A stretch of 64,000 nucleotides of DNA from an uncultured Pseudobdellovibrionaceae bacterium (GTDB lineage: Bacteria; Bdellovibrionota; FAC87; UBA2466). This document shows positions 6,352 to 40,228 of the stretch, piece by piece. Position numbers and translations under genes: made by a program. How positions within the stretch are numbered: the stretch's first letter is position 1; each line of letters opens with the position of its first letter. The notes below the pieces were generated by a model, which saw nothing but the letters and a program-made list of their open reading frames with translations, had not been told where the DNA came from and searched no databases. The stretch is from contig CAZFMF010000011.1 of assembly GCA_964519985.1 (NCBI GenBank), positions 6,695 to 70,694 on the forward strand. Reading direction: 5' to 3'.

Positions 6352-6447
6352 CGGTCATTAGCGAGGCGAAGCCGAAGCAATCTGGTCCGCGAATCCGTTT
6401 GACCACTGAAACCCCTATCGCTATAGCTGCCCGATGGAGGGGCAGTC

Positions 6448-14454: not shown

Positions 14455-14470
14455 ACTCCGGCGCCGGAGT
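14455..14470. repeat. REP-like 16-bp perfect palindrome ACTCCGGCGCCGGAGT (copy 1), between convergent genes
   Basis: Exact 16-mer, with flank CGCC..; one of five copies in the window. Confidence 0.8.
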
Positions 14471-17971: not shown

Positions 17972-17989
17972 GATATCGGATATCCGATC
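17972..17989. repeat. GATATCGGATATCCGATC palindromic repeat, second copy, after the gene ending at 17941
   Basis: Shares GATATCGGATATCCGAT with the tRNA-adjacent hairpin. Confidence 0.6.
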
Positions 17990-18039
17990 TCTAACCGTGA
18001 TCTACTTTCCCCTGAAAGTCCTACAGCTTAACGACTTTT

Positions 18040-23139: not shown

Positions 23140-23185
23140 AACTTGTCTTTGCCTTCCATTTTGAAATGGGTCATAATTGGGTCAT
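23140..23185 (+). promoter_or_regulatory. Candidate vapBC operator/promoter region with a direct repeat GGGTCAT(A/G)A x2
   Basis: AAATGGGTCATAATTGGGTCATGAAAAGG lies immediately upstream of the antitoxin start. Type II antitoxins usually autoregulate via such repeats. Confidence 0.3.
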
Positions 23186-23462
23186 GAAAAGGTCACATTC
23201 TGGCGGTGGCGAAAAAGTGAGCATTGCAAACCTCAAAGCCAAACTTGCTTACTATCTCCGCAAAGTCCGCTTGGGAGAGGAAGTCATCGTCACCGAGCAT
23301 AAGCGACCCGTCGCCAAAATAGTTCAGCTGGAGCCCGAAGGGCTAGATATCATTCGAGCCAAAGGTTCCTTCGCGGAAGTTGCGGATACAAAACTGGAAC
23401 CTCTTGACCACGAAAAAGTAGACTCCCTATCGCACCTATTGAAGGAGCGAGGTAATCGTTAA
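23184..23462 (+). CDS. vapB: Type II antitoxin, Phd/YefM family (VapB-like)
   Basis: VSIANLKAKLAYYLRKVRLGEEVIVTEHKRPVAKIV is typical of Phd/YefM. The stop overlaps the ATG of the downstream PIN gene (TAATG). Confidence 0.7.
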   Translation: MKRSHSGGGEKVSIANLKAKLAYYLRKVRLGEEVIVTEHKRPVAKIVQLEPEGLDIIRAKGSFAEVADTKLEPLDHEKVDSLSHLLKERGNR

Positions 23463-23875
23463 TGATCGCCTACATCGACTCTTCGGTGCTACTTCGAGTT
23501 ATTTTTTCTGAGTCCAACTCGCTCAAGGAGTTTAAGAAGATCAAGGCGGCAGTATCGAGCGAACTGCTACGAGTGGAGTGCATGCGCACTATCGATCGTG
23601 TCCGCGTCACTAATAAGTTTTCCGATGAAGTTTATCTAGAGTATGTCCGACGCTTCTTTCTCTTCTTGGAAAAAATCGATCTCATTCCAATTCAACGAGA
23701 AATCCTGAATCGAGCCGCACAGCCTTTTTCCACCATCTTAGGTTCCTTAGACGCCATCCACCTCGCTTCCGCGATTTTGTACCGCGAAAGATATTCCTCC
23801 CGGCTTGTTCTTACGACCCACGATAAACAGCTATTTGGAGCTGCCCTCGCGTCTGGCTTCGAGGTGCTTGGTTAA
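23462..23875 (+). CDS. vapC: Type II toxin, PIN-domain ribonuclease VapC
   Basis: PIN signature: N-terminal IAYIDSSVLL (Asp), then conserved acidic residues. 137 aa, immediately downstream of the antitoxin. Confidence 0.8.
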   Translation: MIAYIDSSVLLRVIFSESNSLKEFKKIKAAVSSELLRVECMRTIDRVRVTNKFSDEVYLEYVRRFFLFLEKIDLIPIQREILNRAAQPFSTILGSLDAIHLASAILYRERYSSRLVLTTHDKQLFGAALASGFEVLG

Positions 23876-25866: not shown

Positions 25867-26646
25867 ATGGTCCTAACCATATTAAGCCATCTTGCCATTC
25901 CCATTTTGGCCTTCCTTTTCGTCAATCAGTCGGCACTTGCAACGGACAAAATTGGAAAGATTGGGAGATGCACGAAACAACTGCAGAAGATGTTAGAGGA
26001 ACGTTCTGCGGATCCCCGAATGATAGAAATTCTACTCGATCTGGATCGAAGAATAGGGCGCCTGGAATCGGAGAGAGGAGATCGGACGTTGCGGCGAACA
26101 CCTCGCGGCACTCTCCCGGCCGCCCACCCGATCTATCTTGTTGAATTACTAAAAACAATGGACCCGGAAGTTCTCAAGGCCAGGATACTTGCTTATCGAA
26201 AGCCCCGAAACAGCAAGCGAGTACCGAATAATGCGCCGAGCCTGTCCCCAATAATAAATATTCGAGATCGGACAGGAGCTATCCTTCGTTTGAGCTGGCT
26301 TACCGGAGAGTGGGGTGGCGATGCCACCATAGGTGAGCAACCACTGGGATCTTTGCTCGTAGGAATCGTGAATTTTGTAGGCGAAGAGTCGAAGAACTTC
26401 GATCCCGACCTTTGGGGCACTTACGTTGGCAAAGTCGTTCTCCAACGCCACGAGGAGATGGTTTATCGCCCTATCCGACTTGGCCACGAACTCCACGAGC
26501 GCGTCGAAACGATGGCGAAAGAGCTATTGGGCGGACAGCCAGGAAGCACGCAGGAAGTGATTATCGCCTCGATTCATTTGATTTGCGATGCCTTTGGAGC
26601 GCCCCCCGCCGACGAGCTCGAGCTAGTCTCGGCTGAGGAGCCCTAA
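25867..26646 (+). CDS. Secreted hypothetical protein
   Basis: Internal ATG with GGAGA ribosome-binding site and signal-like MVLTILSHLAIPILAFLFVNQSALA. The track ORF starts at 25777. Confidence 0.35.
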   Translation: MVLTILSHLAIPILAFLFVNQSALATDKIGKIGRCTKQLQKMLEERSADPRMIEILLDLDRRIGRLESERGDRTLRRTPRGTLPAAHPIYLVELLKTMDPEVLKARILAYRKPRNSKRVPNNAPSLSPIINIRDRTGAILRLSWLTGEWGGDATIGEQPLGSLLVGIVNFVGEESKNFDPDLWGTYVGKVVLQRHEEMVYRPIRLGHELHERVETMAKELLGGQPGSTQEVIIASIHLICDAFGAPPADELELVSAEEP

Positions 26647-26671
26647 GATAAAACCGGTTCCGGCATTCGGA

Positions 26672-26712
26672 TCTGATATCGGATATCCGATATCGAGCCA
26701 TCCGATATCAGA
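26672..26712. repeat. Hairpin/palindromic repeat TCTGATATCGGA-TATCCGATATCGAGCCA-TCCGATATCAGA immediately 3' of tRNA-Gly
   Basis: 12-bp perfect inverted arms. The loop itself contains a GATATC-based palindrome. A related copy lies at 17972-17989. Confidence 0.7.
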
Positions 26713-26718
26713 CTGAGT

Positions 26719-26794
26719 TGGAGCGGGTGAAGGGGTTCGAACCCTCGGCCCTCAGCTTGGGAAGCTGATGCTCTACCAACTGAGCTACACCCGC
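26719..26794 (-). tRNA. tRNA-Gly (anticodon CCC)
   Basis: The reverse complement reads GCGGGTGTAGCTCAGTTGGTAGAGCATCAGCTTCCCAAGCTGAGGGCCGAGGGTTCGAACCCCTTCACCCGCTCCA. It folds as a cloverleaf with a 7-bp acceptor stem, D-loop AGTTGGTA, anticodon loop TTCCCAA, T-loop TTCGAAC, discriminator U and an encoded CCA. Confidence 0.85.
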
Positions 26795-26889
26795 ATAATA
26801 AATAAAAGAACTGTTACTACGGATACTTAGCACGGCTTTCCAAAATCCGTCTACCGCGATTTTCTCGTCCATGGAACATTCGTGGAACA

Positions 26890-27102
26890 TTAATGAAATA
26901 GCCGGATTACCTGCTCCACCCCTTCGAGGTTGGAACCTCGATGATGGATGTAGCGCTCCGTAACCTTACTACCGCTGTGAGCGAAGAGCTGTCGGATATC
27001 GTCCCGAGTCGCTCCGTGAGAAAGGCACAACGCAGAAGTTGAGTGGCGAAGGCCATGAGTTCCGATCACAGGAATCTCAAGTTCCTTGCAGTATCGCCGC
27101 AA
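26890..27102 (-). pseudogene. Truncated tyrosine recombinase (phage-type integrase) C-terminal fragment
   Basis: HGLRHSTSALCLSHGATRDDIRQLFAHSGSKVTERYIH contains the integrase catalytic HxxR...Y box, but only about 70 aa remain. It lies next to tRNA-Gly. Confidence 0.7.
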
Positions 27103-27730
27103 CTTTCACGAATACCATTCATACGAGAGCATTCCGCCGACTGGCGAAGTCGCAACGAAAACACTCGAGACTCGTCCACTCTCGGCTCGCAGAACTTGCC
27201 AAGCTCGCCGGGTCAACCTTGGCTCTACTCTATTGGACCGGGGCCCCCCGAAGGAATCACGCTTCCCAAACGGTCTGGCGGAAATCAACCGGGGCGGGTA
27301 TCCTCTGTCCGTGAACTCCCTACAGGCGATCATCTTCCTCTCACTCCTACTTGCACCGGAGATTCTCTTGGGTCGCCGCCTACTCCGCTACGAACCGGCG
27401 ATCGTAGAGTGTCGCGGCAGGCTGCGGCTTGTCTATTTTCCGGGGTCGCCCAACTACCAGTCCATTAAAGATGGTGACAAACGTGAAGGAGTTTACATTT
27501 TGGAACTCGAAGAACCTTTCGATATAGCTGCTGCCAACGACCCCAATAAGCCACTTAATGATTCCGAGGGGTGGGGTAAAAACGTGCAACGCATCCAGCT
27601 CATTAGTGATGGAACTCTAGAAAAACGCGTTGGGAAAAAAGTTACCGTGAGGGGAATGTTGTTTGAAGCCATCTTTGGCCGCCATCACACCAGCGTGCTG
27701 ATGGAAGTGCTGAAAGTGACCGGGAAGTAA
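27086..27730 (+). CDS. DUF4431-like hypothetical protein (conserved HHT motif); true start probably internal (e.g. GTG near 27311, giving MNSLQAIIFLSLLLAPEILLG..)
   Basis: The C-terminal GMLFEAIFGRHHTSVLMEV fits the HHT signature of DUF4431. The first part of the track ORF overlaps the integrase fragment. Confidence 0.4.
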   Translation: MQYRRNFHEYHSYESIPPTGEVATKTLETRPLSARRTCQARRVNLGSTLLDRGPPKESRFPNGLAEINRGGYPLSVNSLQAIIFLSLLLAPEILLGRRLLRYEPAIVECRGRLRLVYFPGSPNYQSIKDGDKREGVYILELEEPFDIAAANDPNKPLNDSEGWGKNVQRIQLISDGTLEKRVGKKVTVRGMLFEAIFGRHHTSVLMEVLKVTGK

Positions 27731-27740
27731 ATGTATTCCC

Positions 27741-28397
27741 GTGCCATCAAAGGTGGTCGGCAGCGCCGTTATCTACATCGATGGCAAGGACCGTCTTGTA
27801 AAAATAGGCGGTGACCCGGCTTGGCGGAACAACAACCCGGGGAACCTTAAGAGCGGTGCCCACACGCGCATTCATGGCTCGATCGGAGTCGTGAACGGAT
27901 TTGCTGTGTTTCCGACCGAGGAGATCGGGACGGAAGCGAGGATTCGGCTGTTGAAGGGAAGCAAGTATCGAAACAAGACGATCATCGAGGCAGTGAAATC
28001 TTATGCGCCGAAGAGCGACGGCAATAATCCCGAGCGGTACGCGCGGCAGATCGAGTCGATTGCTGGCTTGAAGCGCAATCGAGTGTTGAAGGATCTTTCC
28101 GATGGCGAGTTTACGGCACTCGTCGCGGCCATGAAGCAAATCGAAGGAAATCGACCGGGACGAGAGGAAAAGTTTCGGGTTAAGGAGATAATAGATATTC
28201 GGGTAAACGAACGGAACGCTATTGTCGCCTACAACATTGAGGACTACGGTTGGTTGTCGAAGGCGGAGACGATCGCGCTCATCGAGCAGGGGCGTATCGA
28301 TGCTGTCGTGGTAACGGAGAAGGGGCGAACTTATGTTAGAACGCGGCCCGATCACGCGACATCAAACAATCTGTATGAGATGAAACCGCAAAAGTGA
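27741..28397 (+). CDS. Hypothetical protein (AWRNNNPGNL motif), function unknown
   Basis: 218-aa ORF 10 nt downstream of the DUF4431-like gene, same strand. No family recognised with confidence. Confidence 0.4.
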   Translation: MPSKVVGSAVIYIDGKDRLVKIGGDPAWRNNNPGNLKSGAHTRIHGSIGVVNGFAVFPTEEIGTEARIRLLKGSKYRNKTIIEAVKSYAPKSDGNNPERYARQIESIAGLKRNRVLKDLSDGEFTALVAAMKQIEGNRPGREEKFRVKEIIDIRVNERNAIVAYNIEDYGWLSKAETIALIEQGRIDAVVVTEKGRTYVRTRPDHATSNNLYEMKPQK

Positions 28398-28465
28398 AGA
28401 TCGGATCGGCTCAGAATGTCGCGTCTCGCAAATCGAAGCACAAAATAAACCAATCAAGGTCTGGA

Positions 28466-29314
28466 TTAGCTCCGATCGAGTTCGGCGAGAATCTCCAGTA
28501 GCGCCTTCCACTGATCATCGAATGACGGAGGGTCTTCTCCTAATTCTACACTCGGCCACGCGCCTCGCAGTATCGAAAGGTCAAATCTCTTGGCTTCCGA
28601 CAAAAAATATCTAGGCACTTCCGTATTCCTCCTCTCGAATGTCATTCGTATAGCGTTGAGCAGCGATGTTCTGTCCTGGCACCGTGCAAAGAGAAGCACG
28701 AGATCATAAACATCGCGGGAGCGAGAGTTGGCCGATCCGCGTCGGTAGAGAGTCTGCAATTTTTCCGCAAACATGCTCTCCAGTGGATACACTCGCCACG
28801 ACACCGATTGACCCCGCCCCAGTATGGATTCCATAGTCTGCGACTTTGGCTTAGCTGGGAGCGCATCACCAAATCCAATATCCATCTGTATCCGAGATAG
28901 TTTTTTGACCTTACTGGCTGAAGGTTCTTCGCCGATCTGAAAGGCGACGCTGAAGCGAATTCCTTCGTAATCACCCTGGTGCTCCAGCGGTTCATTTTTC
29001 AGGTCACCGTACCAAAGTCCATCATCCAAATTTTTTGAAAGTGCCGACTCCATCAGGGCCGGAATCTTTTGCGCTGATAGCTCGTGGGCGAGGGCGTCAA
29101 CATCGCGGGTAAATCTGGGACTATCAATAAGCTTGAATAGAACAAACCCGCCTTTGAACACCAAGTGCTTGAAGAGAATGGGATGCGCTTCGATGCGGGC
29201 GATCGCCCGTTCAAGGGCAACAATGATTCTCAGCTCATTGATATCTCGAGAGGAATCCGCATCCGCAATTTTCTTGAGGGCGCTCATGACAGCCCGGCCC
29301 CTTTCCACGTTCAT
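28466..29314 (-). CDS. abiEii: Type IV toxin-antitoxin/abortive-infection toxin AbiEii-like nucleotidyltransferase (DUF1814)
   Basis: About 280 aa with the HLVFKGGFVLFKL..RFTRDVDAL region (a nucleotidyltransferase GG/DxD-like fold). The 4-nt overlap with the upstream AbiEi-like gene is the canonical abiE arrangement. Confidence 0.65.
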   Translation of the reverse strand: MNVERGRAVMSALKKIADADSSRDINELRIIVALERAIARIEAHPILFKHLVFKGGFVLFKLIDSPRFTRDVDALAHELSAQKIPALMESALSKNLDDGLWYGDLKNEPLEHQGDYEGIRFSVAFQIGEEPSASKVKKLSRIQMDIGFGDALPAKPKSQTMESILGRGQSVSWRVYPLESMFAEKLQTLYRRGSANSRSRDVYDLVLLFARCQDRTSLLNAIRMTFERRNTEVPRYFLSEAKRFDLSILRGAWPSVELGEDPPSFDDQWKALLEILAELDRS

Positions 29315-29880
29315 GCGAGGGCCTCGAGATAGGGTTGGACTCGATGGTAGACGTCTAACTCTTTCGCTACATCGGCAATACGCCCGAGATTTACGGAGCC
29401 TTTGATAGCTCTTCGTAAGGCTTCCATCGCGATATTAGTGCCGATCAGATTTCGGAACAGGATGGCATCTACCAGAGTGCGTTCGATAGAGGTTATCCAA
29501 TACTGTTTCTTTTTTTCGATTCCAATCTTCCATTGAGGGTTTCGCGTTCGCAACAGTCGAATATTGCGATGCTGTGTGCGTTTGGCAGCTTCGACCATCA
29601 GCCAAACTTTTTTCGGAATCGCGTCGGTTAAGTGGTAATGCGCTAACGCGGATACGAGGCACACGGCATTGGGACGCCCAATCTGCGCCGAGGCTGCGGC
29701 AAAGGACTCTTCTTCCGAATAATCGGCGTCGCCTGTCTGATAGAGTCCTCGGCCGACCTTACGCAGCGTTCCGTCCGTCACCATCTTCTTGAGGCAATAG
29801 AAGGTAATGCCAGCTTTTGCCGCTTCCTGGGTCGAAAATGGCCGGTTCTTGAAAGACCTTGGAATTTTTGCCTGGCCCAT
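29311..29880 (-). CDS. abiEi: AbiEi-family antitoxin/transcriptional regulator (winged-helix N-terminus plus C-terminal AbiEi_4-like domain)
   Basis: 189 aa. QEAAKAGITFYCLKKMVTDGTLRKVGRGLY is typical of the AbiEi N-terminal winged helix. It overlaps the AbiEii-like gene. Confidence 0.65.
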   Translation of the reverse strand: MGQAKIPRSFKNRPFSTQEAAKAGITFYCLKKMVTDGTLRKVGRGLYQTGDADYSEEESFAAASAQIGRPNAVCLVSALAHYHLTDAIPKKVWLMVEAAKRTQHRNIRLLRTRNPQWKIGIEKKKQYWITSIERTLVDAILFRNLIGTNIAMEALRRAIKGSVNLGRIADVAKELDVYHRVQPYLEALA

Positions 29881-29990
29881 TTAAATAAAATGACACGATT
29901 TCAATTTTGTGTCAATTTACATAATTTTTCAAGAGAGCGCCAAACCCCAATTGGCCTGTTATGAGACGGATCGGCGGGTGACCGGAGGGA

Positions 29991-30701
29991 CTAGTCCTCC
30001 AGTACCTCCGTCAGAGCCTTGGCCTTTTGCGCAATTGCGTTCTTGTGTTCCTGCGCCGTCAGCGCCCGCTCCAGCGCCGCCGTCGTTTCGTCGATTGCGG
30101 CAAACCGGGACGGGTCCTCGTTCGTATCGACCAGCGCGGTTTTGAGCCAATGCGCCAGATCCGCAAACTGCGTATCGACCGACTTCTTGGTCTGCTCCAA
30201 ATCCTCGCCCGTCAAAACGCTTTTCGGGATCAGTTCGTGTAGCGACATGAGCTGTTTTTCATGGGTTTCCTCGTAGAGCCGCGAGACCTCCGGCGCAAAC
30301 AGCTCCTGATTGTGCAATCGCCAGCACGTCAGATCCCGAATATCCGAGAGCAAACCGCTCAGCGCCACCGCCGTATCGTACCCCAGGTAGTGGAATGTAC
30401 CGGGCGCAGAGGCCTTCACCTGCTCCTTCGACGACGTCAGCGCAAGTTTTAGCTCATCCTGAAACCCGACCTCGTGGCGACGGATTTCGGCCACGATCCA
30501 ATCCTGCGCCAAAGTCGAAAGGGTGCCCGGGTTGAAAATCGCATCACCATCCACTTCAAAATACCGAGCCAAAACGGGAAATAGTTTCTTGTCCATTTCG
30601 GCCGGATCCATCCGCGGCGGCTCATAGTAGCCAACGGATTTGCGCGGCCCGCGGTTGAAATCACTTGGATCTTCGGCATCGATGTAGAAATCACTCCGCA
30701 A
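29991..30701 (-). CDS. Hypothetical protein
   Basis: 236-aa acidic ORF with a TTG start in the track and no clear ribosome-binding site. It may be spurious or start downstream. Confidence 0.3.
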   Translation of the reverse strand: MRSDFYIDAEDPSDFNRGPRKSVGYYEPPRMDPAEMDKKLFPVLARYFEVDGDAIFNPGTLSTLAQDWIVAEIRRHEVGFQDELKLALTSSKEQVKASAPGTFHYLGYDTAVALSGLLSDIRDLTCWRLHNQELFAPEVSRLYEETHEKQLMSLHELIPKSVLTGEDLEQTKKSVDTQFADLAHWLKTALVDTNEDPSRFAAIDETTAALERALTAQEHKNAIAQKAKALTEVLED

Positions 30702-31093
30702 ATCGAATCGAATTTTGGGGTGAGAGATGACGCTCGTCTTTACCGTTCCTTCAAAATCCGATGCACTCAGACGCAGAGCAAGACCGGGCTTGTAGTAAAA
30801 GATCCCATTCTTTCGGGATCGCGTGTTCGAAAGCGTATCTTCGCTCCAGTGGGTATCCAGCTCAGTGGCATATTGGATGGGCCGCAGACCCGAGTTTTTT
30901 CGGATGAAACTCAGCAGCCGAAGTTCCGGGCCTCGCGTGGTGTCTCAAATTCGAAGGGTTTGCGTCTCAACCAAGAGACTTCCTTCAAAGGTGAGAAACG
31001 ACTAGCCGATGAGTCCGCTACGAACGCTGTCCCACAGGCTATTGAATCCCAAGGGTTCTTGCCGTCTATACAAAAATAAGACATACCCAACGC

Positions 31094-31309
31094 ATGGGAA
31101 CAACGAGGAGGAAGGCTGGGCGTCCGAAGCGCGTTCTTCCCATGAAAATGGTTGGAATTCGACTTCAAGAATCTCTCATTGAGAGACTTAGAAGACTCGC
31201 ATCTCAGGAAGGCCTCCCGTACCAAACTTACCTCCGAAAAGTAGTCTGGGATCACGCTTTTAAGCGCGAAACTTTGATCGGCGAAACGGGCAATGGAACA
31301 AAGGCCTAA
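31094..31309 (+). CDS. CopG/ribbon-helix-helix DNA-binding protein, BrnA-antitoxin-like
   Basis: GRPKRVLPMKMVGIRLQESLIERLRRLASQEGLPYQTYLRKVV matches the BrnA (COG3514) pattern GRP...........IRLD.D.L..FK......GYQT.IN..LR. No BrnT partner was detected upstream. Confidence 0.45.
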   Translation: MGTTRRKAGRPKRVLPMKMVGIRLQESLIERLRRLASQEGLPYQTYLRKVVWDHAFKRETLIGETGNGTKA

Positions 31310-34300
31310 CCGCAATAAGCCAAGCACTAGCCCTGGCGAAAGACTCCTTTACTGGCATCTGGGAAAATATCCAAAAGCAGTCCAGTGGGCTGTCCCGTCG
31401 CTTCTTGTCATAGGAGCCCTTGTTACCCAGCATTTTCTCCGACCGGTAATTGGAGAGCGCAGTTTTCTTCTCCTCTATCCGACCGTCTTTTTTAGCGCTT
31501 TGATCAGCGGCAGCCTCGGGCCTGGCGTTCTTGCAAGTTTCATTGCGACCATCGGCGCTTGGTACTTCTTTGTTCCCACTATTTACTCGTTCACTATCAC
31601 CCGGGTGGGCGATTTATTTGGCCTCGTCACGTTTGCATTCACCGGACTTAGCTTCAGTCTGATTAGCGGAAAGCTTCGTTCCATTCAAGGCGCGGAAAGT
31701 GAAGTTGCACAGCTCAGTGCCATCATTACCTCGAGCGATGATGCTATTATCAGTAAGACTCTGAATGGAACGATTCTGACCTGGAATCCGGGAGCAGAAA
31801 AAATATTCGGGTACTCTGCAGATGAGATGCAAGGGAAAAGCATCTTCTCAATTATCCCTGCAGATAAGCATGAAGAAGAGCGCAGAATATTGGATAGGCT
31901 GTCGCGAGGAAGCAGTCTCGTGCAATACGAGACCACTCGGATTCGAAAAGACGGCACGCTGGTCGAAATCGCTTCCACGATTTCTCCGATCAAAGACGAG
32001 AAAGGGAACGTCATTGGTGCCTGCAAAATCGGCAGGGACGTCACGGAAAAAAAAGCAACCGAAAGAAATATTCAGGAGCTTCTGAATACCACCTCCGTGA
32101 TCAACGAGGTCTACGCAAGAATGCGCGGAGAACCAACTACCAAGGAGCTCGCCGAAAATGTCCTCACCTACCTGGCCCATTCCCTAAAGGCTCATGTCGG
32201 GGCGTTTTATCGAGTAAATGAAGAGCGCCTGATACGCCTGGCTGGATTTGCCCTTCCCCATGAAACGAATATTCCATTTCCAGAAATGTTTCACAGGGGG
32301 CAAGGGCTTCTTGGACAGGCAGTAAAATCCGGGGAGCCCTTTATCCTTGCGACGATCCCTGAGAATTACCTCACCATCCGATCCGCACTCGGAGAAACAA
32401 AGCCAGCCTCTTTGCTATTCGTCCCCATTCAGCACGAAGGGAAGGTAATCGCGGCAATTGAGTTTGGGACGCTTAGTGGGTTCGCGGAAGAGCATCGGGT
32501 TCTTGTCAAGAATATCTCGGAGATTATCGGGGTTGGGCTTTTCTCGGCCGACACCCGGGAACAGCTAAAGCAGCTTTTAGAGGAAACGCGCGCTCAGCAA
32601 GATGAACTTCAGGCATCGAACGAGGAATTGGAAAATACAACCAACGAGCTACAAACCCAGCAAGAGGAACTAAAGCAGGCCAACGAAGAGCTGCAAGAGC
32701 AGAGGACGGCTCTCGAGGAACAAAAGGAATCTCTGGAGAAAACAAATCGCAAAGCGGAGGAAGCCCGCTCTGAGGTGCAACGAAAGGCCGAAGCTCTGGA
32801 GACGGCCGGCAAATACAAATCTGAGTTTCTCGCAAATATGTCGCATGAGCTCAGGACCCCATTAAACAGCATTCTCCTTCTTTCCAAAGCCATGTCCGAA
32901 AATTTGGAAGGGAATTTGAATTCCAATCAATTGGAATCAGCGCACACCATTCACTCTTCCGGAACGGATCTACTGAACCTGATTAACGATATCTTAGACC
33001 TTTCCAAGGTCGAAGCGGGTAAGCTTGAAATCAGAATTTCGGACGTCGAAATCTCGGAGCTGGTCGTGGCCCTCAAGAACCAATTCCGTGCCCAGATGGA
33101 GGCTAAGGATCTTTCCTTCGAGATCGAAATCGCCGAGCTCTGTCCCGAAGAAATTACTACGGATCGATTGCGGCTCGAGCAGATCCTGAAGAATTTTCTT
33201 TCTAACGCAATTAAGTTCACGGAAAAAGGCTTCGTCAAAGTCATTTTCCATGCGGTTCCTCATGACAATTCCTCAATTGCTATCACGGTCAAAGATACCG
33301 GAATCGGCATTCCGGAAGCACAAAGATCGCTCATTTTTGAAGCTTTCGAACAAGGCGACAACTCAATCAGTCGAAGATATGGAGGTACGGGATTGGGGTT
33401 GACGATCGCAAGGGAGCTCGGCGGTCTCCTGGGCGGAGAAATACAAGTCCATAGCGAGGAAGGCAAAGGGAGTGAGTTTACGCTCGTACTCCCCATTCAC
33501 TTCGATGAAGGCAGGACCGTGACCGCCATTAGTTCGCGGGCGCCTTCTGTGGACGTGACGCCTAGTGAACCCGCTCCCGCTGCCAAGGTTCGCAAAAATG
33601 GTTCGGAACGAGTGGATGATCGACGAAAGATTGATAAGGGTGACCGAGTCCTCCTTATCATTGAGGACGATCCTCATTTTGCCAAGATTCTCCTGGGACT
33701 TTGTCGAGGTCGCGGATTTAAATGCTTGCTCGCCACGAATGGTGAAGCGGGACTAACCGATGCCGATGAGTTCCAACCCGATGCTATCATTTTGGATTTG
33801 AGACTTCCCGCCATGAGCGGGATGACGGTTCTGGGAAGGCTTAAGAAAAATCTTCGGACCAGGCATATCCCAGTACATGTTATGTCGGTCGAAGAGAAAC
33901 GTAACGAGGTCCTCCAAATGGGAGCCGTGGGGTTTCTTTCAAAACCCGCCGATAAAGAACGACTCGAGGACGCTCTAAAGCGTATCGAAACAACGATTAG
34001 CACCAAAGCGAGGAGTGTTCTTGTCGTCGAAGATCGTAAAGTTGAGCGAGAGGCCATTCTCAAGCTTATCGGTAACGGAGACGTCACTTCCGTCGGTGCC
34101 GAGACTGGAGAAGAAGCGCTTCAATTACTCAGGACCAGAGTCTTCGACTGCATGATTCTCGATATAAAGCTCCCCGATTTTTCGGGGTTCGATCTATTGG
34201 ATAAAATGGAGAAGGACGAGACTCTTTCTCGGCCCGCCGTCATCATCTATACGGGACGAGATCTCACCAAAGATGAAATTGTGCGCTTAAATAAGTTTTC

Positions 34301-34817
34301 ACAGACCATTATTATAAAGGGCGTGAAATCAGAAGATCGCCTCTTCGACGAAGTCGCTCTCTTCCTTCATCGTGTCGTAGCGGACCTGCCCGAATCGAAA
34401 CAGCGTACCTTAGAACGTGTTCGACACCGCGAAGGGCTCTTCGAGGGAAAGAAAATATTGGTAGTCGATGATGACATGCGAAATGTCTTTGCGCTCCGAA
34501 GCCTTCTGCAAGGCAGAGGCTTTGAAATCTTTGCCGCTAAGACGGGTAAGGAAGCGCTGCGACACCTGGACGAACACTCGGACGTCGATATTGTCCTCAT
34601 GGATATCATGATGCCCGAAATGGACGGTTTTGAGGCCATGCGAAAAATAAGGGCCCAGGAAAAATTCATGAAACTCCCGATTATTGCCCTCACCGCGAAG
34701 GCAATGGTTGGAGACCGGGATAAATGCTTAGAGGCGGGAGCCAATGACTATCTCTCGAAGCCCATCGACGGCGAAAGTTTGCTCTCTTTGTTAAGAGTTT
34801 GGTTAACCAGAGCGTAA
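31293..34817 (+). CDS. Hybrid sensor histidine kinase: N-terminal membrane sensor domain (DUF4118/KdpD-like), PAS, GAF, long Glu/Gln-rich coiled coil, HisKA, HATPase_c and three C-terminal receiver domains
   Basis: H-box ANMSHELRTPLN. N/G boxes GTGLGLTIARELGGLLGGEI. Three REC signatures (LLIIEDDP...DAIILDLRLP, VLVVEDRK...DCMILDIKLPDFSG, ILVVDDDM...DIVLMDIMMPEMDG). Confidence 0.9.
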   Translation: MEQRPNRNKPSTSPGERLLYWHLGKYPKAVQWAVPSLLVIGALVTQHFLRPVIGERSFLLLYPTVFFSALISGSLGPGVLASFIATIGAWYFFVPTIYSFTITRVGDLFGLVTFAFTGLSFSLISGKLRSIQGAESEVAQLSAIITSSDDAIISKTLNGTILTWNPGAEKIFGYSADEMQGKSIFSIIPADKHEEERRILDRLSRGSSLVQYETTRIRKDGTLVEIASTISPIKDEKGNVIGACKIGRDVTEKKATERNIQELLNTTSVINEVYARMRGEPTTKELAENVLTYLAHSLKAHVGAFYRVNEERLIRLAGFALPHETNIPFPEMFHRGQGLLGQAVKSGEPFILATIPENYLTIRSALGETKPASLLFVPIQHEGKVIAAIEFGTLSGFAEEHRVLVKNISEIIGVGLFSADTREQLKQLLEETRAQQDELQASNEELENTTNELQTQQEELKQANEELQEQRTALEEQKESLEKTNRKAEEARSEVQRKAEALETAGKYKSEFLANMSHELRTPLNSILLLSKAMSENLEGNLNSNQLESAHTIHSSGTDLLNLINDILDLSKVEAGKLEIRISDVEISELVVALKNQFRAQMEAKDLSFEIEIAELCPEEITTDRLRLEQILKNFLSNAIKFTEKGFVKVIFHAVPHDNSSIAITVKDTGIGIPEAQRSLIFEAFEQGDNSISRRYGGTGLGLTIARELGGLLGGEIQVHSEEGKGSEFTLVLPIHFDEGRTVTAISSRAPSVDVTPSEPAPAAKVRKNGSERVDDRRKIDKGDRVLLIIEDDPHFAKILLGLCRGRGFKCLLATNGEAGLTDADEFQPDAIILDLRLPAMSGMTVLGRLKKNLRTRHIPVHVMSVEEKRNEVLQMGAVGFLSKPADKERLEDALKRIETTISTKARSVLVVEDRKVEREAILKLIGNGDVTSVGAETGEEALQLLRTRVFDCMILDIKLPDFSGFDLLDKMEKDETLSRPAVIIYTGRDLTKDEIVRLNKFSQTIIIKGVKSEDRLFDEVALFLHRVVADLPESKQRTLERVRHREGLFEGKKILVVDDDMRNVFALRSLLQGRGFEIFAAKTGKEALRHLDEHSDVDIVLMDIMMPEMDGFEAMRKIRAQEKFMKLPIIALTAKAMVGDRDKCLEAGANDYLSKPIDGESLLSLLRVWLTRA

Positions 34818-34822
34818 ACTCC

Positions 34823-35662
34823 ATGAGCTTAAAAGCCATTCAAGCGACGGATTACGAAAACCTTGAAATGAAACTTCTGATTGATGCCGTATACCAAAAG
34901 TACGGCTATGACTTTCGCAACTACGCGCACGCGAGCTTTAAGCGAAGGCTCGTAAAGGCCCGAATCAAACATGACTGCAAGAATATTGCGGAGATTCTTT
35001 ACCGAACGTTAACCGAACCCGATTTTTTTTCCGTTCTTATTAACGATCTCACCGTCACCGTAACTGAGTTATTTCGAGATCCTTCCGTTTACCGTGCCGT
35101 CCGGGAAGAGATTGTGCCACATTTAAAAACCTATCCCGAGATAAAGGTTTGGTGCGCAGGCTGCGCTGCGGGGGAAGAGGTTTTCTCATTAGCCATTCTT
35201 CTTGAAGAAGAAGGACTGTACAACCACTCGATCCTCTACGGAACCGATATCAATCCTTTGGCTTTGGAGTGTGCTCGTGACGGGATTGTATCGCTCGCCA
35301 AGATTAAAGACGGCACGAAGAACTATTTTGAAGCGGGCGGTAAGCAATCTCTCACTAGTTATTACACAGCGGAATACGATGCGGCTCTTCTAAGATCCGA
35401 ATTAAGAGAAAACCTTGTCTTCTCCGATCATAATTTGGCTACGGATGGGGTTTTTGGAGAAATGCAGCTGATCTTCTGCAGAAACACGCTCATCTACTTC
35501 AATCGAGATCTTCAGGACCGGGCGATCGGCTTGTTTCGAGAAAGTCTTTGCCCGGGTGGTTTCCTGTGTTTGGGAGCGAAAGAGAGCCTGAGCCTATCGA
35601 AGTATAGACGGGACTTTGAGGAAATTGGGCCTTCAAAAAAAATTTATCGAAAGAAATGGTGA
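34823..35662 (+). CDS. cheR: Chemotaxis protein methyltransferase CheR
   Basis: CheR SAM-binding region VWCAGCAAGEEVFSLAILLEE..YGTDINPLALECARDG and C-terminal LIFCRNTLIYFNRDLQ. Start placed at the ATG just after the kinase stop; the track ORF begins at 34799. Confidence 0.9.
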   Translation: MSLKAIQATDYENLEMKLLIDAVYQKYGYDFRNYAHASFKRRLVKARIKHDCKNIAEILYRTLTEPDFFSVLINDLTVTVTELFRDPSVYRAVREEIVPHLKTYPEIKVWCAGCAAGEEVFSLAILLEEEGLYNHSILYGTDINPLALECARDGIVSLAKIKDGTKNYFEAGGKQSLTSYYTAEYDAALLRSELRENLVFSDHNLATDGVFGEMQLIFCRNTLIYFNRDLQDRAIGLFRESLCPGGFLCLGAKESLSLSKYRRDFEEIGPSKKIYRKKW

Positions 35663-35666
35663 TTCC

Positions 35667-36257
35667 ATGGGGGAGAAAAATTACCAGGCAATCACTGTCG
35701 GCACTTCTCTCGGTGGCTTTCGTGCTTTGGAAGTCATTCTGCTGGGACTGCCGCGCGGATTTGGGGTTCCTATCCTTATCGTCCAGCACTTAGATCCAAA
35801 TTCCGACGGATTAGTTCCTTCGCTCCTGTCCGAAAAATGCGCTATTCGGATCAAGGAAGCGGATGACAAAGAGGCGATTGAGTCAGGAACTGTCTACGTT
35901 GCTCCGCCCAATTACCACCTTCTGGTTGAGCCCGATAGGACGCTATCGCTTTCCATCGATGAAAAGGAAAACTATTCTAGACCCTCCATTGACGTTCTCT
36001 TTGAATCCGCCGCGGAGGCCTATAAGGGGTCCCTAATCGGGATTGTCCTGACCGGCGCCAGTCACGACGGCGCCCGGGGGCTCGAGAAAATTAAGGCGAT
36101 GGGAGGACTCACGATCGTTCAGGATCCGGAAACCGCCGAAAGCAGGATTATGCCGGTAGCCGCGATTCGACAGGCAAAGGCAGACTATATTCTGCCGCTA
36201 CCAGAAATCACGGATTTCATAGTGCGTTGTTGTGAGGGAGAGGGAACAATCGTATGA
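35667..36257 (+). CDS. cheB: Chemotaxis protein-glutamate methylesterase CheB, catalytic domain only (no receiver domain)
   Basis: CheB_methylest motifs TVGTSLGGFRAL (Ser), VQHLDPN (His) and GIVLTGASHDGARGL (Asp). About 197 aa. The stop overlaps the next gene's start (ATGA). Confidence 0.85.
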   Translation: MGEKNYQAITVGTSLGGFRALEVILLGLPRGFGVPILIVQHLDPNSDGLVPSLLSEKCAIRIKEADDKEAIESGTVYVAPPNYHLLVEPDRTLSLSIDEKENYSRPSIDVLFESAAEAYKGSLIGIVLTGASHDGARGLEKIKAMGGLTIVQDPETAESRIMPVAAIRQAKADYILPLPEITDFIVRCCEGEGTIV

Positions 36258-37831
36258 AAGAGATCGTCAACGTTCTTGCTGTAGATGACAAGCCATCAAA
36301 TCTTCTGGCTCTCGAAAACACTCTTCAAGGACATAAAATCAATTTTGTTAAAGCTGGCACCGGTAATGAAGCTTTAGCCAGGCTCTTAGAAATGGAGTTC
36401 GCGTGTGTTTTGCTTGATGTAAAGCTCCCCGATATCGACGGATTTGAACTTGCCCGAATTATTCGCGGCGACGAGAAGACAAAATATCTCCCGATAATTT
36501 TCGTAAGTGGCCATCGGATTGGGCAAGATGACATTTTCACGGGCTACGAGATCGGAGCCTTTGACTACCTCCTCAAGCCGATCGACCCCACGATCGTCAG
36601 GAGCAAGGTAAATATATTTGCCGAGATGTATCGAAAAGAGACCGAGCGTAAACTCACACAACGAGCTCTCGAGGCAAGTGAAAAACACACACGCATGATT
36701 ATCGAGAACGCTACCGATGCTTTTGTGGCGATTGATGCCCAAGGAGTCATAACCGCCTGGAACCAATCCGCGGAACTTACATTCGGTTGGAGTAAGGACG
36801 AGATTGTTGGAAAACCGGTGGCCGAAACACTCATCCCCTCGCGCTATCGACCCGCCCACCAGAAAGGATTGGATCATTACTTCAAGACGGGAGAGGGTGC
36901 GGTCTTGAATAAACGTCTCGAGCTCTCGGCTCTGCACAAGGACGGCAGGGAGTTTCCCATTGAAATTTCCATCTCGGACGCTGCGGTAAAAGATGGAATC
37001 GCGTTCTTTGCCTTCATTCATGACATCTCGGAGCGCAAACGTGCCGAAAATGCAATCCGCAAAGCAAAAGAAGATCTGGAAGGACGCGTAAAAGAGAGAA
37101 CAATGGAACTAACGCTGCAAACGGAGGAGCTGAAGCGATCCAACGAAGAGTTGGCAAGATTCGCCTATATCTCTTCTCACGACCTCAAAGAGCCCCTCCG
37201 GATGATTTCGATGTATACCCAGATCCTGGAGGCAAGACATGCCGGACAGCTGAGTCAGGAGGCCAGGGACTGTATGGATATCGTAGTCGAGGGAGCTTCG
37301 AGAATGCGCACCCTCATTGACGATCTTCTTACGTATGCCCGGGTGGGACGAGGAGAAGAGAATTTTATAATGGTCGATACGAGCAAGGTCGTGGATAAGG
37401 TTATTGGCAATCTCAAGGCGTTAACCACCGAGACTGGCGCCGAGATCGATTGCGGGCGACTTCCGTCACTTGAAGCTCAAGAGGCTCAGATTACCCAGGT
37501 GTTTCAAAACCTGATCAGTAACGCGATTAAGTTTCGTGGGGCGGCGGCGCCCAAGATCAAGATCGAAGCCAAGGAAGTGGATGGATTTTATCAATTTTCA
37601 GTTCGAGACTTCGGTATCGGAATTCGTCCGGAATACCACGCCAAGTTGTTTAAGATTTTCCAAAGGCTCCATACCAAGGAAAAGTATCCAGGAACCGGGA
37701 TCGGTCTCTCCGTGTGCAAAAAGATAGTTGAGATTCACGGAGGCAAGATTTGGGTGGAGTCCGAAGAAGAAAAAGGGGCGACGTTTCATTTTACACTCCC
37801 CAAGACACAACCGACGGGAGTTAGACTTTAG
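36254..37831 (+). CDS. Response-regulator/sensor histidine kinase hybrid (REC-PAS-HisKA-HATPase_c), HWE/bacteriophytochrome-type H-box
   Basis: N-terminal REC (LAVDDKPSN...VLLDVKLPDIDG). PAS domain. H-box SSHDLKEPLRMI. ATP-binding GTGIGLSVCKKIVEIHGG. Confidence 0.9.
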   Translation: MKEIVNVLAVDDKPSNLLALENTLQGHKINFVKAGTGNEALARLLEMEFACVLLDVKLPDIDGFELARIIRGDEKTKYLPIIFVSGHRIGQDDIFTGYEIGAFDYLLKPIDPTIVRSKVNIFAEMYRKETERKLTQRALEASEKHTRMIIENATDAFVAIDAQGVITAWNQSAELTFGWSKDEIVGKPVAETLIPSRYRPAHQKGLDHYFKTGEGAVLNKRLELSALHKDGREFPIEISISDAAVKDGIAFFAFIHDISERKRAENAIRKAKEDLEGRVKERTMELTLQTEELKRSNEELARFAYISSHDLKEPLRMISMYTQILEARHAGQLSQEARDCMDIVVEGASRMRTLIDDLLTYARVGRGEENFIMVDTSKVVDKVIGNLKALTTETGAEIDCGRLPSLEAQEAQITQVFQNLISNAIKFRGAAAPKIKIEAKEVDGFYQFSVRDFGIGIRPEYHAKLFKIFQRLHTKEKYPGTGIGLSVCKKIVEIHGGKIWVESEEEKGATFHFTLPKTQPTGVRL

Positions 37832-37838
37832 GCGGCTT

Positions 37839-38294
37839 ATGAAGGTCAGCAACGAAATATTGGTCGTCGACGATAATAATGCGGATGTGAAGATCCTAAG
37901 AGACTTCTGGCCGGCGGAACTGGGAGCCTACCATTTCGTCGTAGCGGAAGACGGTGAGCAGGCACTTAACTACATTCACAAACGAGGAAGGTATTCGGGA
38001 CGAACAGCACCCTGCATCGTGTTCTTGGATCTTAACCTACCGAGAAAAAGCGGCACCGAAGTCCTGACCGAGATCAAAAAGCACCCCGAGTTCAAAAACG
38101 TCACCGTTATCGTCTTATCGGGTTCGGATGATCCAAGAGACAAAGCGCAGTGTCTCGCGCTGGGGGCCGAGCGGTTCTTCACCAAACCAAGTAATTTGGA
38201 AGGTCTCGGGGCCTTTTTTTCCGTAATGAAATCTTATCTCCGCAAGGATTGTGGAAACGAATCTGCGGGTGAGATAGGAGGAGACAAGGAATGA
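37839..38294 (+). CDS. Single-domain response regulator (CheY-like receiver)
   Basis: ILVVDDNNAD...IVFLDLNLPRKSG...VIVLSGSDDP receiver signature. Start placed at the internal ATG (MKVSNEILVVDD); the track ORF begins at 37728 and overlaps the upstream gene. Confidence 0.8.
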   Translation: MKVSNEILVVDDNNADVKILRDFWPAELGAYHFVVAEDGEQALNYIHKRGRYSGRTAPCIVFLDLNLPRKSGTEVLTEIKKHPEFKNVTVIVLSGSDDPRDKAQCLALGAERFFTKPSNLEGLGAFFSVMKSYLRKDCGNESAGEIGGDKE

Positions 38295-40228
38295 GTATCG
38301 CTAAATCATATGTTCTCTGTGTGGACGATGATCCCAGAAACCTCCTGGCTTTGAAGGCCGTACTCGCCAATGTGGGGGCCAATCTCGTCATGGCCCGTTC
38401 CGGAGCCGAGGCGCTTGAAGCAGCCGGGGAACGTGAGTTTGCGGTGATTCTCCTCGACGTCATGATGCCCGACATGGACGGGATCGAGACGGCAAAACGG
38501 CTTCGCGAACTGGAAAACGCGAAGCATAGCCCGATCGTATTCGTTACCGCCTACCCATTGGATGAGATGCGAACCTTTCGCGGTTATGCCTTGGGCGCCG
38601 TAGATTACATCCACAAACCAATTGGTACGGAAATTCTACAGTCTAAAGTTCGGGCATTCGTTCAACTCTTCGAGCTCCGTGAGCAGGTTAAAGAGCAGGC
38701 GATCAATGAGATGCGGCAACGTTGGGAAACGATGCGCCTTCGGGAAGAGTTTGAACGTGAGGCGTTACTTCATCTTTTCGTCGATAATGTAAAAGATTAC
38801 GGCGTTTTTTTTATCGATCCTGAAGGAGGCATCCACAACTGGAACCCGGCGTGCGAAAGTATCTTTGGATATCAGGAATCGGAAATTCTGGGGCGGGATT
38901 TTTCGACTATCTTCGTACCCGAAGATGTGAATAAGAGGGTGCACCTTTTGGAGCTTGAAAAAGCGAAAGAAAAAGGTCGAGCGGAGGATGAGCGATGGCA
39001 TCTGCGGAAAGACGGCACACGTTTTTGGGCGGACGGAGTGGTGACCCCGCTAAGAGACAAGAATGGAGAGCTACGAGGATTTTGTAAGCTGGTGCGTGAC
39101 AATACTCGGCGGAAAGAGTGGGAGGAGACACTTAAAAGAAGTGAAGATCGCTTTAGAATGGCGGTCGACTCCGCGCGATTAGGCACGTGGGACTACGATC
39201 CGAAGACGGGTAGCCTCGAGTGGTCCGATCGGGCGAAAGAGCTAGCCGGCCTCCCCGAGAATTCCACGGTAACTTACGAAACCTTTCTAGCTTCACTACA
39301 CCCTGAAGATCGCCCTCGCGTCGAGCAAAGAATAGCAGAAGCCCTGAGCGGAAAAGCCGACGGGCAATACGCGATTGAGTACCGAACGGTGGGTTTAGTC
39401 GATAAGATCATGCGGTGGCTCTATGTAAGGGGGAAAGTTTACACGGACGAGCAAGGCCTACCCACTCGTTTCATTGGAACGGTGATGGACATTACCGATG
39501 AAAAAAGAGCGGAAGAAGAACGAACGGCACTGATCGATAGCCTTAAGGGCTCGAATCGAGAGCTGGAAAGTTTTGCTTCTACGGCCTCGCATGATCTCCA
39601 GGAGCCACTCCGAATGATCTCTATGTATCTTTCGCTTCTCGAACGTCGCTTTCAAGGAAGATTGGGAGAAGACGAAAAAGAATACATGCATTCGGTTGTG
39701 AATGCCTCAGATAGAATGAAGCGTCTCACAACGGATCTACTTAGTTATTCGAGGCTATTCGGTGAGAAAATCGACTCAGGGCCAGTAGACCTGAACTCCG
39801 CGCTGGAGAAGGCTCTGGAGAATCTAAGTCTGGCGATTGAGGAAAGTGGCGCCAGAATTACGCGAGACCGACTCCCAATGATTCGCGGGAACGGCACGCA
39901 GTTAGTCCAGCTTTTCCAAAATCTTATCTCGAACGCAATCAAGTACCAAACGAGAAAATCCCTTCCGGAAATTTCTATATCGGCAATGCGACAAGACCAA
40001 CAATGGATAATTGCAGTTAAAGACAATGGTATAGGTTTCGATATGGAGCACTCCGGGAAGATTTTTGACGTCTTTCAACGTCTTCATTCCCGCACGGAAT
40101 ATGCTGGATCAGGACTTGGTCTCTCCACTTGTAGAAAAATCGTGGAGCATCATCAGGGAAGAATCTGGGCGGAGTCAGCGCCAGCCGATGGCTCGACATT
40201 TTACGTTGCCCTTCCCGTTTCCGAGTGA
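38291..40228 (+). CDS. Response-regulator/sensor histidine kinase hybrid (REC-PAS-PAS-HisKA-HATPase_c)
   Basis: REC (VLCVDDDPRN..ILLDVMMPDMDG). Two PAS blocks. H-box ASHDLQEPLRMI. ATP-binding GSGLGLSTCRKIVEHHQG. Confidence 0.9.
   Translation: MSIAKSYVLCVDDDPRNLLALKAVLANVGANLVMARSGAEALEAAGEREFAVILLDVMMPDMDGIETAKRLRELENAKHSPIVFVTAYPLDEMRTFRGYALGAVDYIHKPIGTEILQSKVRAFVQLFELREQVKEQAINEMRQRWETMRLREEFEREALLHLFVDNVKDYGVFFIDPEGGIHNWNPACESIFGYQESEILGRDFSTIFVPEDVNKRVHLLELEKAKEKGRAEDERWHLRKDGTRFWADGVVTPLRDKNGELRGFCKLVRDNTRRKEWEETLKRSEDRFRMAVDSARLGTWDYDPKTGSLEWSDRAKELAGLPENSTVTYETFLASLHPEDRPRVEQRIAEALSGKADGQYAIEYRTVGLVDKIMRWLYVRGKVYTDEQGLPTRFIGTVMDITDEKRAEEERTALIDSLKGSNRELESFASTASHDLQEPLRMISMYLSLLERRFQGRLGEDEKEYMHSVVNASDRMKRLTTDLLSYSRLFGEKIDSGPVDLNSALEKALENLSLAIEESGARITRDRLPMIRGNGTQLVQLFQNLISNAIKYQTRKSLPEISISAMRQDQQWIIAVKDNGIGFDMEHSGKIFDVFQRLHSRTEYAGSGLGLSTCRKIVEHHQGRIWAESAPADGSTFYVALPVSE

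Follow-up and report, generated by a model that had tools for sequence, protein, structure and literature searches.

We analysed a 64,000-nucleotide (nt) stretch of DNA from an uncultured Pseudobdellovibrionaceae bacterium (contig CAZFMF010000011.1, positions 6,695 to 70,694; hereafter the window, whose own coordinates are used throughout), in which the C-terminal part of a tyrosine integrase gene (int) lies on the 5′ side of a complete tRNA-Gly(CCC) gene. We regard it as likely that window positions 26719 to ~27290 are the fossil integrase-proximal junction (attR, the right attachment site) of a small integrative element, the cargo of which likely lies to the right; the family of such elements is found in Bdellovibrionota- or Deltaproteobacteria-like bacteria. 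The locus is an ordinary island remnant, and the position of its integrase is explained by a known minority polarity of integration. A first-pass annotation, made from the letters of the sequence, had already proposed an island remnant here, and this proposal is supported in part: judging by its sequence, the integrase piece truly is what remains of an integrative element, accessory DNA lies on the integrase side of the tRNA, and relatives carry AbiE cargo. The same annotation had singled out the 5′-side location of the integrase; the location is indeed unusual, although it is not an anomaly of decay but the normal polarity of one clade of the family, described below as class A.

The residual integrase open reading frame (ORF; positions 26890–27102, minus strand, 70 aa) covers positions 114–169 of the 172-position PF00589 profile (29.2 bits vs. 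a cutoff of 27.1) and matches PHROG integrase families (phrog_216, 39.4 bits). The HxxR motif, the second His and the Tyr are kept in this ORF, as the first-pass annotation had stated; the remnant is not confined to 70 aa, however, because integrase homology goes on upstream of an in-frame TGA (27106–27108) to at least position 27219. In total, ~110–133 C-terminal codons remain, which align to residues ~226/241–349 of the full-length 349-aa integrases P0021 and P0032, and the remnant is 76–80% identical to four 349-aa integrases (P0021, P0032, P0019 and P0043). About two thirds of the integrase have been deleted, including the first Arg box (LGLRxGE in relatives), and no open frame holds the complete catalytic set, the first Arg and the Lys being gone. 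The residual ORF starts with TTG, not preceded by a ribosome-binding site, and has Cys at a nearly invariant Tyr position. The remnant nevertheless keeps all catalytic residues of its part and shows modest decay only, and the description of the island as old is not established. A search with the 70-aa ORF alone returned only three short relatives; a profile built from metagenome loci recovered >180 family members, mostly full-length (~350–400 aa), some of which are named by their sources as Deltaproteobacteria or Bdellovibrionales metagenome-assembled genomes. The family has no close characterised relative: among annotated collections, the closest integrases of phages and plasmids reach no more than 27% identity, and a scan of IMG/VR viral contigs with the integrase profile found no relative.

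Comparison of the family loci shows two arrangements of integrase and tRNA. In class A, tandem repeats of the form ATGTTCCA-N4-ATGTTCCA come after the int stop codon, and a ~75-nt spacer separates them from a tRNA gene on the same strand. We identified 11 independent class A loci, with the co-oriented tRNA ~70–100 nt after int. According to ARAGORN, the tRNA is complete in 6 of these 11 (Gly-CCC in the window and L010; Ala-TGC in L007, L008 and L019; Pro-TGG in L015), and in the other five it is cut off by the contig end (partial tRNA-Gly in L005 and L017; partial tRNAs in L006, L018 and L020, read by eye at the contig ends). The window belongs to this class, with a co-oriented int, a spacer of 95 nt from the int stop to the tRNA, and TGTTCCA-type tandem repeats at 26872–26890. 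This spacer, the P′ arm, is collinear block for block with L017 and L018, the tandem ATGTTCCA included: the candidate arm-type repeats, which read ATGTTCCAcgaATGTTCCA in the window, are followed by the conserved blocks GAAAATCGCGGTAGACGG and GTGCTAAGT. The integrases of class A form one clade in a neighbour-joining tree. Class B shows the classical arrangement, in which an antisense tRNA lies no more than tens of nt beyond the int stop, either complete (tRNA-His in L012) or as a 3′ half that ends at the anticodon loop (L009, L013, L014, L016 and L025). Every locus has tandem 7–9-nt direct repeats with a period of 11–12 nt beside the int stop, the sequence of which varies by sub-lineage (TGTTCCA, CGTCCA, CGTACCC, ACGACGCA, GGGGACAAAA). 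A short C-terminal tail of the integrase was considered as a marker of class A and rejected, as P0067 in L025 is class B.

In L019 (positions 4186–6562), a single tRNA-Ala(TGC) lies between two integrases of the same family, a class A integrase aimed at its 5′ end and a class B integrase, part of a conjugative element with FtsK, TrbI and TraC/TraG genes, abutting its 3′ end. In L013, the segment 6005–6328, beyond the class B integrase and the antisense tRNA 3′ half, resembles a class A integrase end with its P′ arm; the likeness consists of CTGTTCCACGGATGTTCCATGG followed by AATCACGGGGTACCGG and may be the trace of nested or tandem elements.

The two relatives P0021 and P0032 are located on contigs L017 and L018, where genes for an FtsK/SpoIIIE ATPase, a 296-aa protein with no recognised Rep domain, an HTH_17 excisionase-like protein (Xis) and the 349-aa integrase follow one another. 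Complete relatives measure ~7 kb and comprise, in this order, cargo, the FtsK/SpoIIIE translocase, the 296-aa protein, Xis, int, the P′ arm and part of a tRNA; the cargo of L017 consists of an MqsA-like/DUF4258 toxin-antitoxin-like pair and a helix-turn-helix gene. A tblastx comparison found no homologs of the FtsK/SpoIIIE, 296-aa and Xis genes in the window. At its right end, contig L017, which derives from the reads SRR25375730, runs 30 nt into tRNA-Gly, and its left end begins with nt 11–40 of the tRNA, then passes into non-tRNA DNA that contains a further ATGTTCCATGG ~170 nt in, followed by the cargo genes of the element. ARAGORN found no tRNA in the joined ends. We infer from the behaviour of de Bruijn graphs that these ends are the product of a 40-nt repeat (tRNA nt 1–40) in a k = 31 assembly graph, in which case the L017 element would either be circular, with an element attachment site (attP) of this form, or be flanked by a direct repeat of tRNA nt 1–40. 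In the circular and the flanked case alike, what the element brings along is upstream DNA and the tRNA's 5′ half as far as the anticodon loop, and not the 3′ half.

By the canonical rule, attP contains the tRNA's 3′ half (PMC10865867). Of the 3919 islands in Islander, 159 (~4%) have a 5′ tDNA fragment vs. 3760 with a 3′ fragment (PMC4383910); the 5′-side arrangement is thus rare, but not new. As in those islands, the tyrosine integrase elements of the window family would split the tRNA, restore its 5′ part from their own DNA and lie upstream of it, with the crossover at an anticodon-centred subsite. Like them, the window has an intact tRNA at one end; unlike them, it shows the integrase-proximal junction only, with no displaced fragment at the other end. 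The integrase is represented by a truncated pseudogene only. A further difference is that the opposite polarity occurs within the same family, both polarities being present on one tRNA in L019. The tandem repeats at the int stop, with a copy in the far arm of L017, recall lambda-type heterobivalent integrases and would be putative arm sites. An integrase split by its own attP, as in the SSV1/Mx8 type, was considered and discarded, as full-length int stands intact beside complete tRNAs in L007, L008 and L019.

Under the reading that these comparisons favour, an ancestral class A element would have entered tRNA-Gly(CCC) at its anticodon loop, which homology and collinearity make likely with high confidence. 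Members of the family would use the symmetric anticodon stem-loop of a tRNA gene as their site of recombination, with a class A attP made up of ATGTTCCA-N4-ATGTTCCA, the ~75-nt spacer and tRNA nt 1–40. Integration would then put the element upstream of the tRNA, swapping promoter and 5′ half, as L017 suggests, while the original 5′ half would end up at the element's far end; the integrase would lie 5′ of the tRNA because the class A attP carries the promoter together with the 5′ half. The tRNA-Gly of the window would accordingly be a chimera, of which nt 1 to ~40 (26755–26794) are element-derived and the 3′ part chromosomal, as the attP-like junction of L017 implies, and the regenerated gene would be driven from element DNA; from the geometry, the P′ arm must hold the promoter that now serves it. 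An internal deletion would have taken int residues 1 to ~230, xis, the 296-aa gene and ftsK; the loss of the front part of int is observed, and the order of the deletion events can only be proposed. The far junction (attL, the left attachment site) would also have been lost, and with attL gone and int and xis deleted, the island would be unable to excise. The P′ arm and the integrase tail probably persist because their loss would silence tRNA-Gly(CCC). The genes to the right would most likely be cargo or later additions to an insertion hot spot. For L019, this model would make both halves of the tRNA-Ala element-derived. Towards the broader proposition, that one uncharacterised integrase family uses the anticodon stem-loop in both polarities and that class A is the flipped form, delivering promoter and tRNA 5′ half, we lean only slightly.

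Several findings weigh against this reading. The 5′-half model depends on one contig that is informative at both ends (L017), which is a short-read unitig, and no empty chromosomal attachment site (attB) was observed. The displaced 5′ half of tRNA-Gly is absent throughout the 64-kb window, which was searched with seed repeats, with 16-mers allowing 2 mismatches and by local alignment of each tRNA half; a direct repeat of the tRNA, which the first-pass annotation had expected near 31.0–31.3 kb, is found neither there nor elsewhere in the window. (A 14/16 match at 41848–41863 and a 12-nt repeat at 27375/31005 were examined as attL candidates and set aside as chance-level matches in coding DNA.) The window likewise lacks a second pair of arm repeats, and a scan of the P′ arm for a sigma-70 consensus promoter gave no match. 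The content of guanine and cytosine (GC) and the codon usage of 27–31 kb, measured as GC, GC at third codon positions (GC3) and relative codon likelihood, are not distinct from those of the adjoining signalling cluster, so that the suggested compositional separation of 27.0–31.3 kb does not appear. No cargo gene of the window has a high-identity counterpart in a complete class A element, its AbiEi being only 34% identical to that of L019, and cargo membership is therefore assigned by analogy.

The right-hand limit is affected by the same findings. The remnant and its cargo most likely extend from 26795 to ~31093, and the gene-free stretch 30702–31093, which contains no tRNA fragment and no paired arm motif, is a possible but unproven island edge. 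The right edge as a whole is unproven, because there is no displaced tRNA fragment, no compositional boundary at 31.3 kb and no genome with matching flanks; the first-pass annotation had placed the limit at 31.0–31.3 kb and had the core signalling cluster resume there. That cluster (31293–40228; a hybrid kinase, CheR, CheB, a pair of PAS kinase-receiver proteins and a receiver protein) is the GC-poorest part of the window (0.48–0.51 vs. 0.55–0.61 in the flanks), for which reason its core status is not self-evident; the low-GC zone as a whole runs from 28 to 40 kb (0.48–0.53 vs. 0.55–0.61 on both sides). Neither a scan of the genome collection nor a protein search found a genome that shares the genes flanking the window locus. 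The S41 peptidase to the left has matches of only 26–32% identity, in Armatimonadota, among the species representatives of that collection, and a 289-aa protein of the left flank matches only itself among 5.8 billion proteins. An accessory status of the genes to the right has indirect support: gene contexts beyond the integrase remnant and beyond the tRNA are wholly different among the window, L005 and L010; AbiE genes and the DUF4431/DUF3892 pair occur in other islands, as described below; and short-read contigs that derive from this organism end at 26778, 27669 and 31032, the Logan contig L001 corresponding to window positions 27669–31032.

The features of the locus are listed in the table.

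Table. Features of the tRNA-Gly(CCC) locus and of the genes to its right (coordinates of the window).
Feature	Position	Strand	Basis and remarks
GATATC-rich hairpin	26668–26713		directly 3′ of tRNA-Gly and of a convergent 259-aa gene
tRNA-Gly(CCC), complete, CCA encoded	26719–26794	minus	ARAGORN; Rfam tRNA, 72.8 bits
P′ arm of the former attachment site	26795–26889	minus	collinear with the region downstream of full-length int in L017 and L018
Integrase pseudogene, C-terminal ~110 codons of a 349-aa tyrosine integrase	26890–27219, possibly to 27291	minus	Pfam, PHROG, tblastn, tblastx
DUF4431 protein, ~139 aa, hydrophobic N-terminus	27311 (probable GTG start)–27730	plus	PF14485, 28–29 bits
218-aa protein with C-terminal DUF3892	27741–28397	plus	Pfam DUF3892, 42 bits
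AbiEii nucleotidyltransferase toxin, apparently intact	28466–29314	minus	PF08843, 119 bits; PADLOC AbiEii, 148.6 bits
AbiEi antitoxin/transcriptional regulator, apparently intact	29311–29880	minus	PADLOC AbiEi, 132.3 bits, whole model; PF13338, 27.8 bits
Imperfect inverted repeat, 16-nt arms, 12-nt spacer	29881–29924		arms 81% complementary; directly upstream of abiEi
Acidic hypothetical protein, 236-aa ORF	29991–30701	minus	gene callers: 206 aa, from 30611
Stretch without recognisable gene, 392 nt	30702–31093		ORFs match nothing
Ribbon-helix-helix protein, BrnA/CopG-antitoxin type	31094–31309	plus	PF12441, 28.3 bits vs. cutoff 28, marginal

The tRNA-Gly(CCC) with its adjoining GATATC hairpin had been described by the first-pass annotation and was recovered at the positions given. 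The hairpin is strong (−26.9 kcal/mol; z = −3.85 for the fold vs. shuffles) and probably serves as a transcription stop common to the tRNA and the convergent 259-aa gene, despite having no T-run; a consensus scan called no terminator at it, and a scan of 26500–27400 for promoter and terminator consensus sequences gave no match. The motif GATATCGGATATC has 7 matches in the window vs. 0.11 expected, confined to two sites, this hairpin and 17972–17991. Comparison of the window tRNA-Gly(CCC) with that of L010 (positions 410–482) shows that the first 46 nt are identical and that the T stem carries compensatory changes; CCA is encoded by the former and not by the latter. A short-read contig from the organism of the window, L021, breaks 30 nt into these common 46 nt. 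Directly downstream of the tRNA-Gly(CCC) of L010 (483–534) and of the tRNA-Pro(TGG) of L015 (348–398), ~50 nt are alike (TTTGTCAAAGTwTTCGAACCAAAAT, then an A-rich run and a hairpin), the two contigs coming from different metagenomes.

To the right of the integrase, the DUF4431-like gene reported earlier is borne out, and the 218-aa gene, which had been listed as unknown, carries a recognisable C-terminal domain (DUF3892). Residues 28–141 of this protein resemble a domain of phage endolysin and tape-measure families (phrog_873, 52.9 bits; phrog_2276, 46 bits), and its 90%-identity cluster has 5 further members on other contigs. Its structure prediction from the single sequence was unusable (mean predicted local distance difference test score of 44), and PDB sequence searches with the 218-aa and the 236-aa proteins returned nothing meaningful. 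The DUF4431 and DUF3892 genes form a two-gene module (window 27311–28397) that recurs with 83–86% nucleotide identity in L022 (9578–10666), L023 (9572–10666) and L024 (1–924), in contexts that are otherwise unrelated; homology is confined to window positions 27368–28397 (L023 and L024) and 27383–28414 (L022). The module is always within ~1–2 kb of a tRNA-Gly gene (CCC, GCC or TCC), and in L023 it adjoins a xis-int pair and a tRNA 3′ fragment.

The overlapping AbiEi/AbiEii pair was likewise correctly recognised, the abiEi stop and the abiEii start sharing 4 nt (29311–29314). Both sequences are singletons at 90% identity. AbiEi with a cut AbiEii also occurs in the class A element of L019, and an AbiE is found near the L023 integrase. 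In such systems the AbiEii toxin is restrained by AbiEi, which also represses its own operon. By analogy, the window pair should still act as a type IV toxin-antitoxin and abortive-infection module: it shares with known systems the overlapping bicistron of an AbiEi (winged-helix N-terminal domain plus C-terminal domain) and an AbiEii (DUF1814 nucleotidyltransferase), the order abiEi then abiEii, the 4-nt overlap, near full-length coverage of the PADLOC models and an upstream inverted repeat. This inverted repeat is a candidate operator of AbiEi.

The acidic 236-aa hypothetical protein is present as described and has no match in Pfam, PADLOC, NCBIfam, PHROGs or PDB. It is a near-orphan: a search of 1.84 billion representative proteins yielded just two homologs, in each case the C-terminal ~210 residues of a longer protein (1122 and 1151 aa) without recognised domains. 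The BrnA-like ribbon-helix-helix gene had been reported to lack a BrnT partner, which our search supports: no ORF in 30720–31327 gave a Pfam match to BrnT (DUF497), as gene or remnant, at E ≤ 1. Its likeness to BrnTA systems consists of the match to PF12441 (BrnA, CopG-type antitoxin) at threshold only, and it reaches 17.4 bits vs. a cutoff of 50 for the NCBIfam RelB-like model. Unlike BrnTA, it has no BrnT and shares 17 nt with the beginning of the gene for the 1174-aa hybrid histidine kinase, and it may be a lone regulator. It is the only gene of its kind here; the first-pass annotation had spoken of orphan antitoxin-like genes in the plural.

Other explanations of the locus share part of this evidence. 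The integrase tail could mark an old integration, with 27.3–31.3 kb being a variable or defence hot spot that was filled by separate events, a possible course that we hold to be considerably less probable than not. The DUF4431/DUF3892 module would fit it well, since its homology ends at the two genes, which suggests that it moves as its own unit; the contexts upstream of the integrase remnant differ wholly among the window, L005 and L010, AbiEi is only 34–42% identical to copies in related islands, and the same-organism Logan contig breaks at 27669 and 31032. Complete class A and B relatives, however, carry toxin-antitoxin or AbiE cargo in their integrase-distal part, and the ~4-kb size agrees with an element of ~7–10 kb minus a core of ~4 kb; separate filling and a decayed class A element can, moreover, both hold. 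It is unlikely that the acquired segment is larger and reaches from the tRNA to ~40.2 kb, thereby including the hybrid kinase/CheR/CheB/response-regulator cluster. Low GC from 28 to 40 kb, a GC3 of the signalling genes (0.51–0.54) below that of the AbiE region and the absence of the REP-like palindrome ACTCCGGCGCCGGAGT between 25.7 and 40.2 kb are consistent with such a segment, but there is no tRNA fragment, integrase or arm motif near 40 kb, the known relatives of the element are small (~7 kb), the palindrome, with its five copies, is too rare to make the gap significant, and low GC alone can mirror gene function or expression level.

The integrase tail itself might be read as a retained functional small protein of 70–100 aa, or as a regulator tied to tRNA-Gly, which we consider very improbable. 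Over the last 70 codons, the ratio of non-synonymous to synonymous substitution (dN/dS) is 0.03–0.07 among the three truncated copies next to tRNA-Gly (window, L005 and L010): 0.03 for window vs. L005, with synonymous sites saturated, and 0.06 for L005 vs. L010 (proportions of synonymous and non-synonymous differences pS 0.33 and pN 0.03). The 100-codon ORF of L005 is moreover uninterrupted and preceded by a GGGGAGG ribosome-binding motif. However, the window fragment has the same pN (0.08) to the other fragments and to full-length integrases, and that of L005 is nearer to the full-length L017 and L018 integrases (0.03–0.04) than to the window fragment. The 5′ breakpoints also all differ, at residues ~226–241 in the window and at 249, 262–277, 281 and 305 elsewhere; the window copy bears the in-frame TGA, the TTG without ribosome-binding site and the Cys noted above, and the first catalytic Arg and Lys are absent from the fragment. 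A domesticated mini-integrase, prompted by the low dN/dS, was ruled out by the equally close full-length integrases and the non-identical breakpoints; for the same reasons, the divergence would have built up while the elements were functional, and separate recent deletions would have come afterwards. The simplest reading is that related functional elements underwent internal deletions fairly recently and independently of one another. The tails of L005 (4126–4335) and L010 (101–310) differ by 17 synonymous and 4 non-synonymous changes, their breakpoints differ, and their arm-type repeats have decayed differently; independent recent truncation is likely for this pair too, which remains slightly puzzling at its values of pS and pN. 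Least probable of all, to the point of being nearly negligible, is a classical 3′-end integration, with the island to the left of the tRNA (a Phd/PIN pair, the S41 peptidase and the orphan 259-aa gene) and an unrelated integrase fragment on the right. Such an event would follow the majority rule of 3′-side integration, and a Phd/PIN pair (23178–23875) and an orphan gene do lie to the left; against it, the integrase tail and spacer run collinearly with those of class A elements, where int faces the 5′ end of the tRNA without exception, the left side has no integrase, arm repeat or tRNA 3′ fragment, and the GC3 of the S41 gene (0.67) is core-like.

Two further observations concern the left flank. 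Just left of the S41 peptidase, the Phd/PIN pair, which the first-pass annotation of the island leaves unmentioned, consists of an antitoxin of the Phd/YefM type and a VapC-like toxin with a PIN domain. Five exact copies of the 16-nt palindrome ACTCCGGCGCCGGAGT, vs. 0.03 expected, stand at 14455, 17051, 23061, 25681 and 40279; the palindrome is an intergenic repeat of this genome resembling repetitive extragenic palindromic (REP) sequences. The Phd/PIN pair and the S41 peptidase lie between two of the copies, whose extended orientations are opposite; a 23-nt perfect inverted repeat around these genes, considered as a transposon end, consists instead of these two copies.

Among known mobile elements, actinomycete integrative and conjugative elements (AICEs) such as pSAM2 have int, xis, rep and an FtsK/SpoIIIE-like transfer gene, and pSAM2 restores the 3′ end of its tRNA. 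L017 and L018 resemble them in their compact set of FtsK/SpoIIIE, Xis and Int with a tRNA attachment site. Unlike pSAM2, they have hosts that are Bdellovibrionales- or Deltaproteobacteria-like by name, no recognised Rep domain and, as seen in L017, the 5′ half of the tRNA, and the window retains none of the FtsK/SpoIIIE, 296-aa and Xis core genes.

Taken together, the decayed class A element gives the accessory block and its intact AbiE pair a rational origin, whereas the boundary at 31.3 kb and the core status of the signalling cluster are assumptions. The locus adds a sequence-defined example of the minority 5′-side mode. Together with a junction that resembles attP, candidate arm sites and a sister clade whose polarity is opposite, it is usable for studying polarity switching at a symmetric core and promoter takeover of a host tRNA, and it could help to refine island finders built to look for the integrase on the 3′ side. 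If the two-polarity reading is true, a host tRNA would be transcriptionally dependent on element DNA, and the integrase-proximal arm would be locked in after decay of the element, which would explain the recurrent fossils of an integrase tail next to a tRNA (window, L005 and L010). One tRNA could then be occupied from both sides, as in L019, with little beyond the anticodon loop being of host origin.

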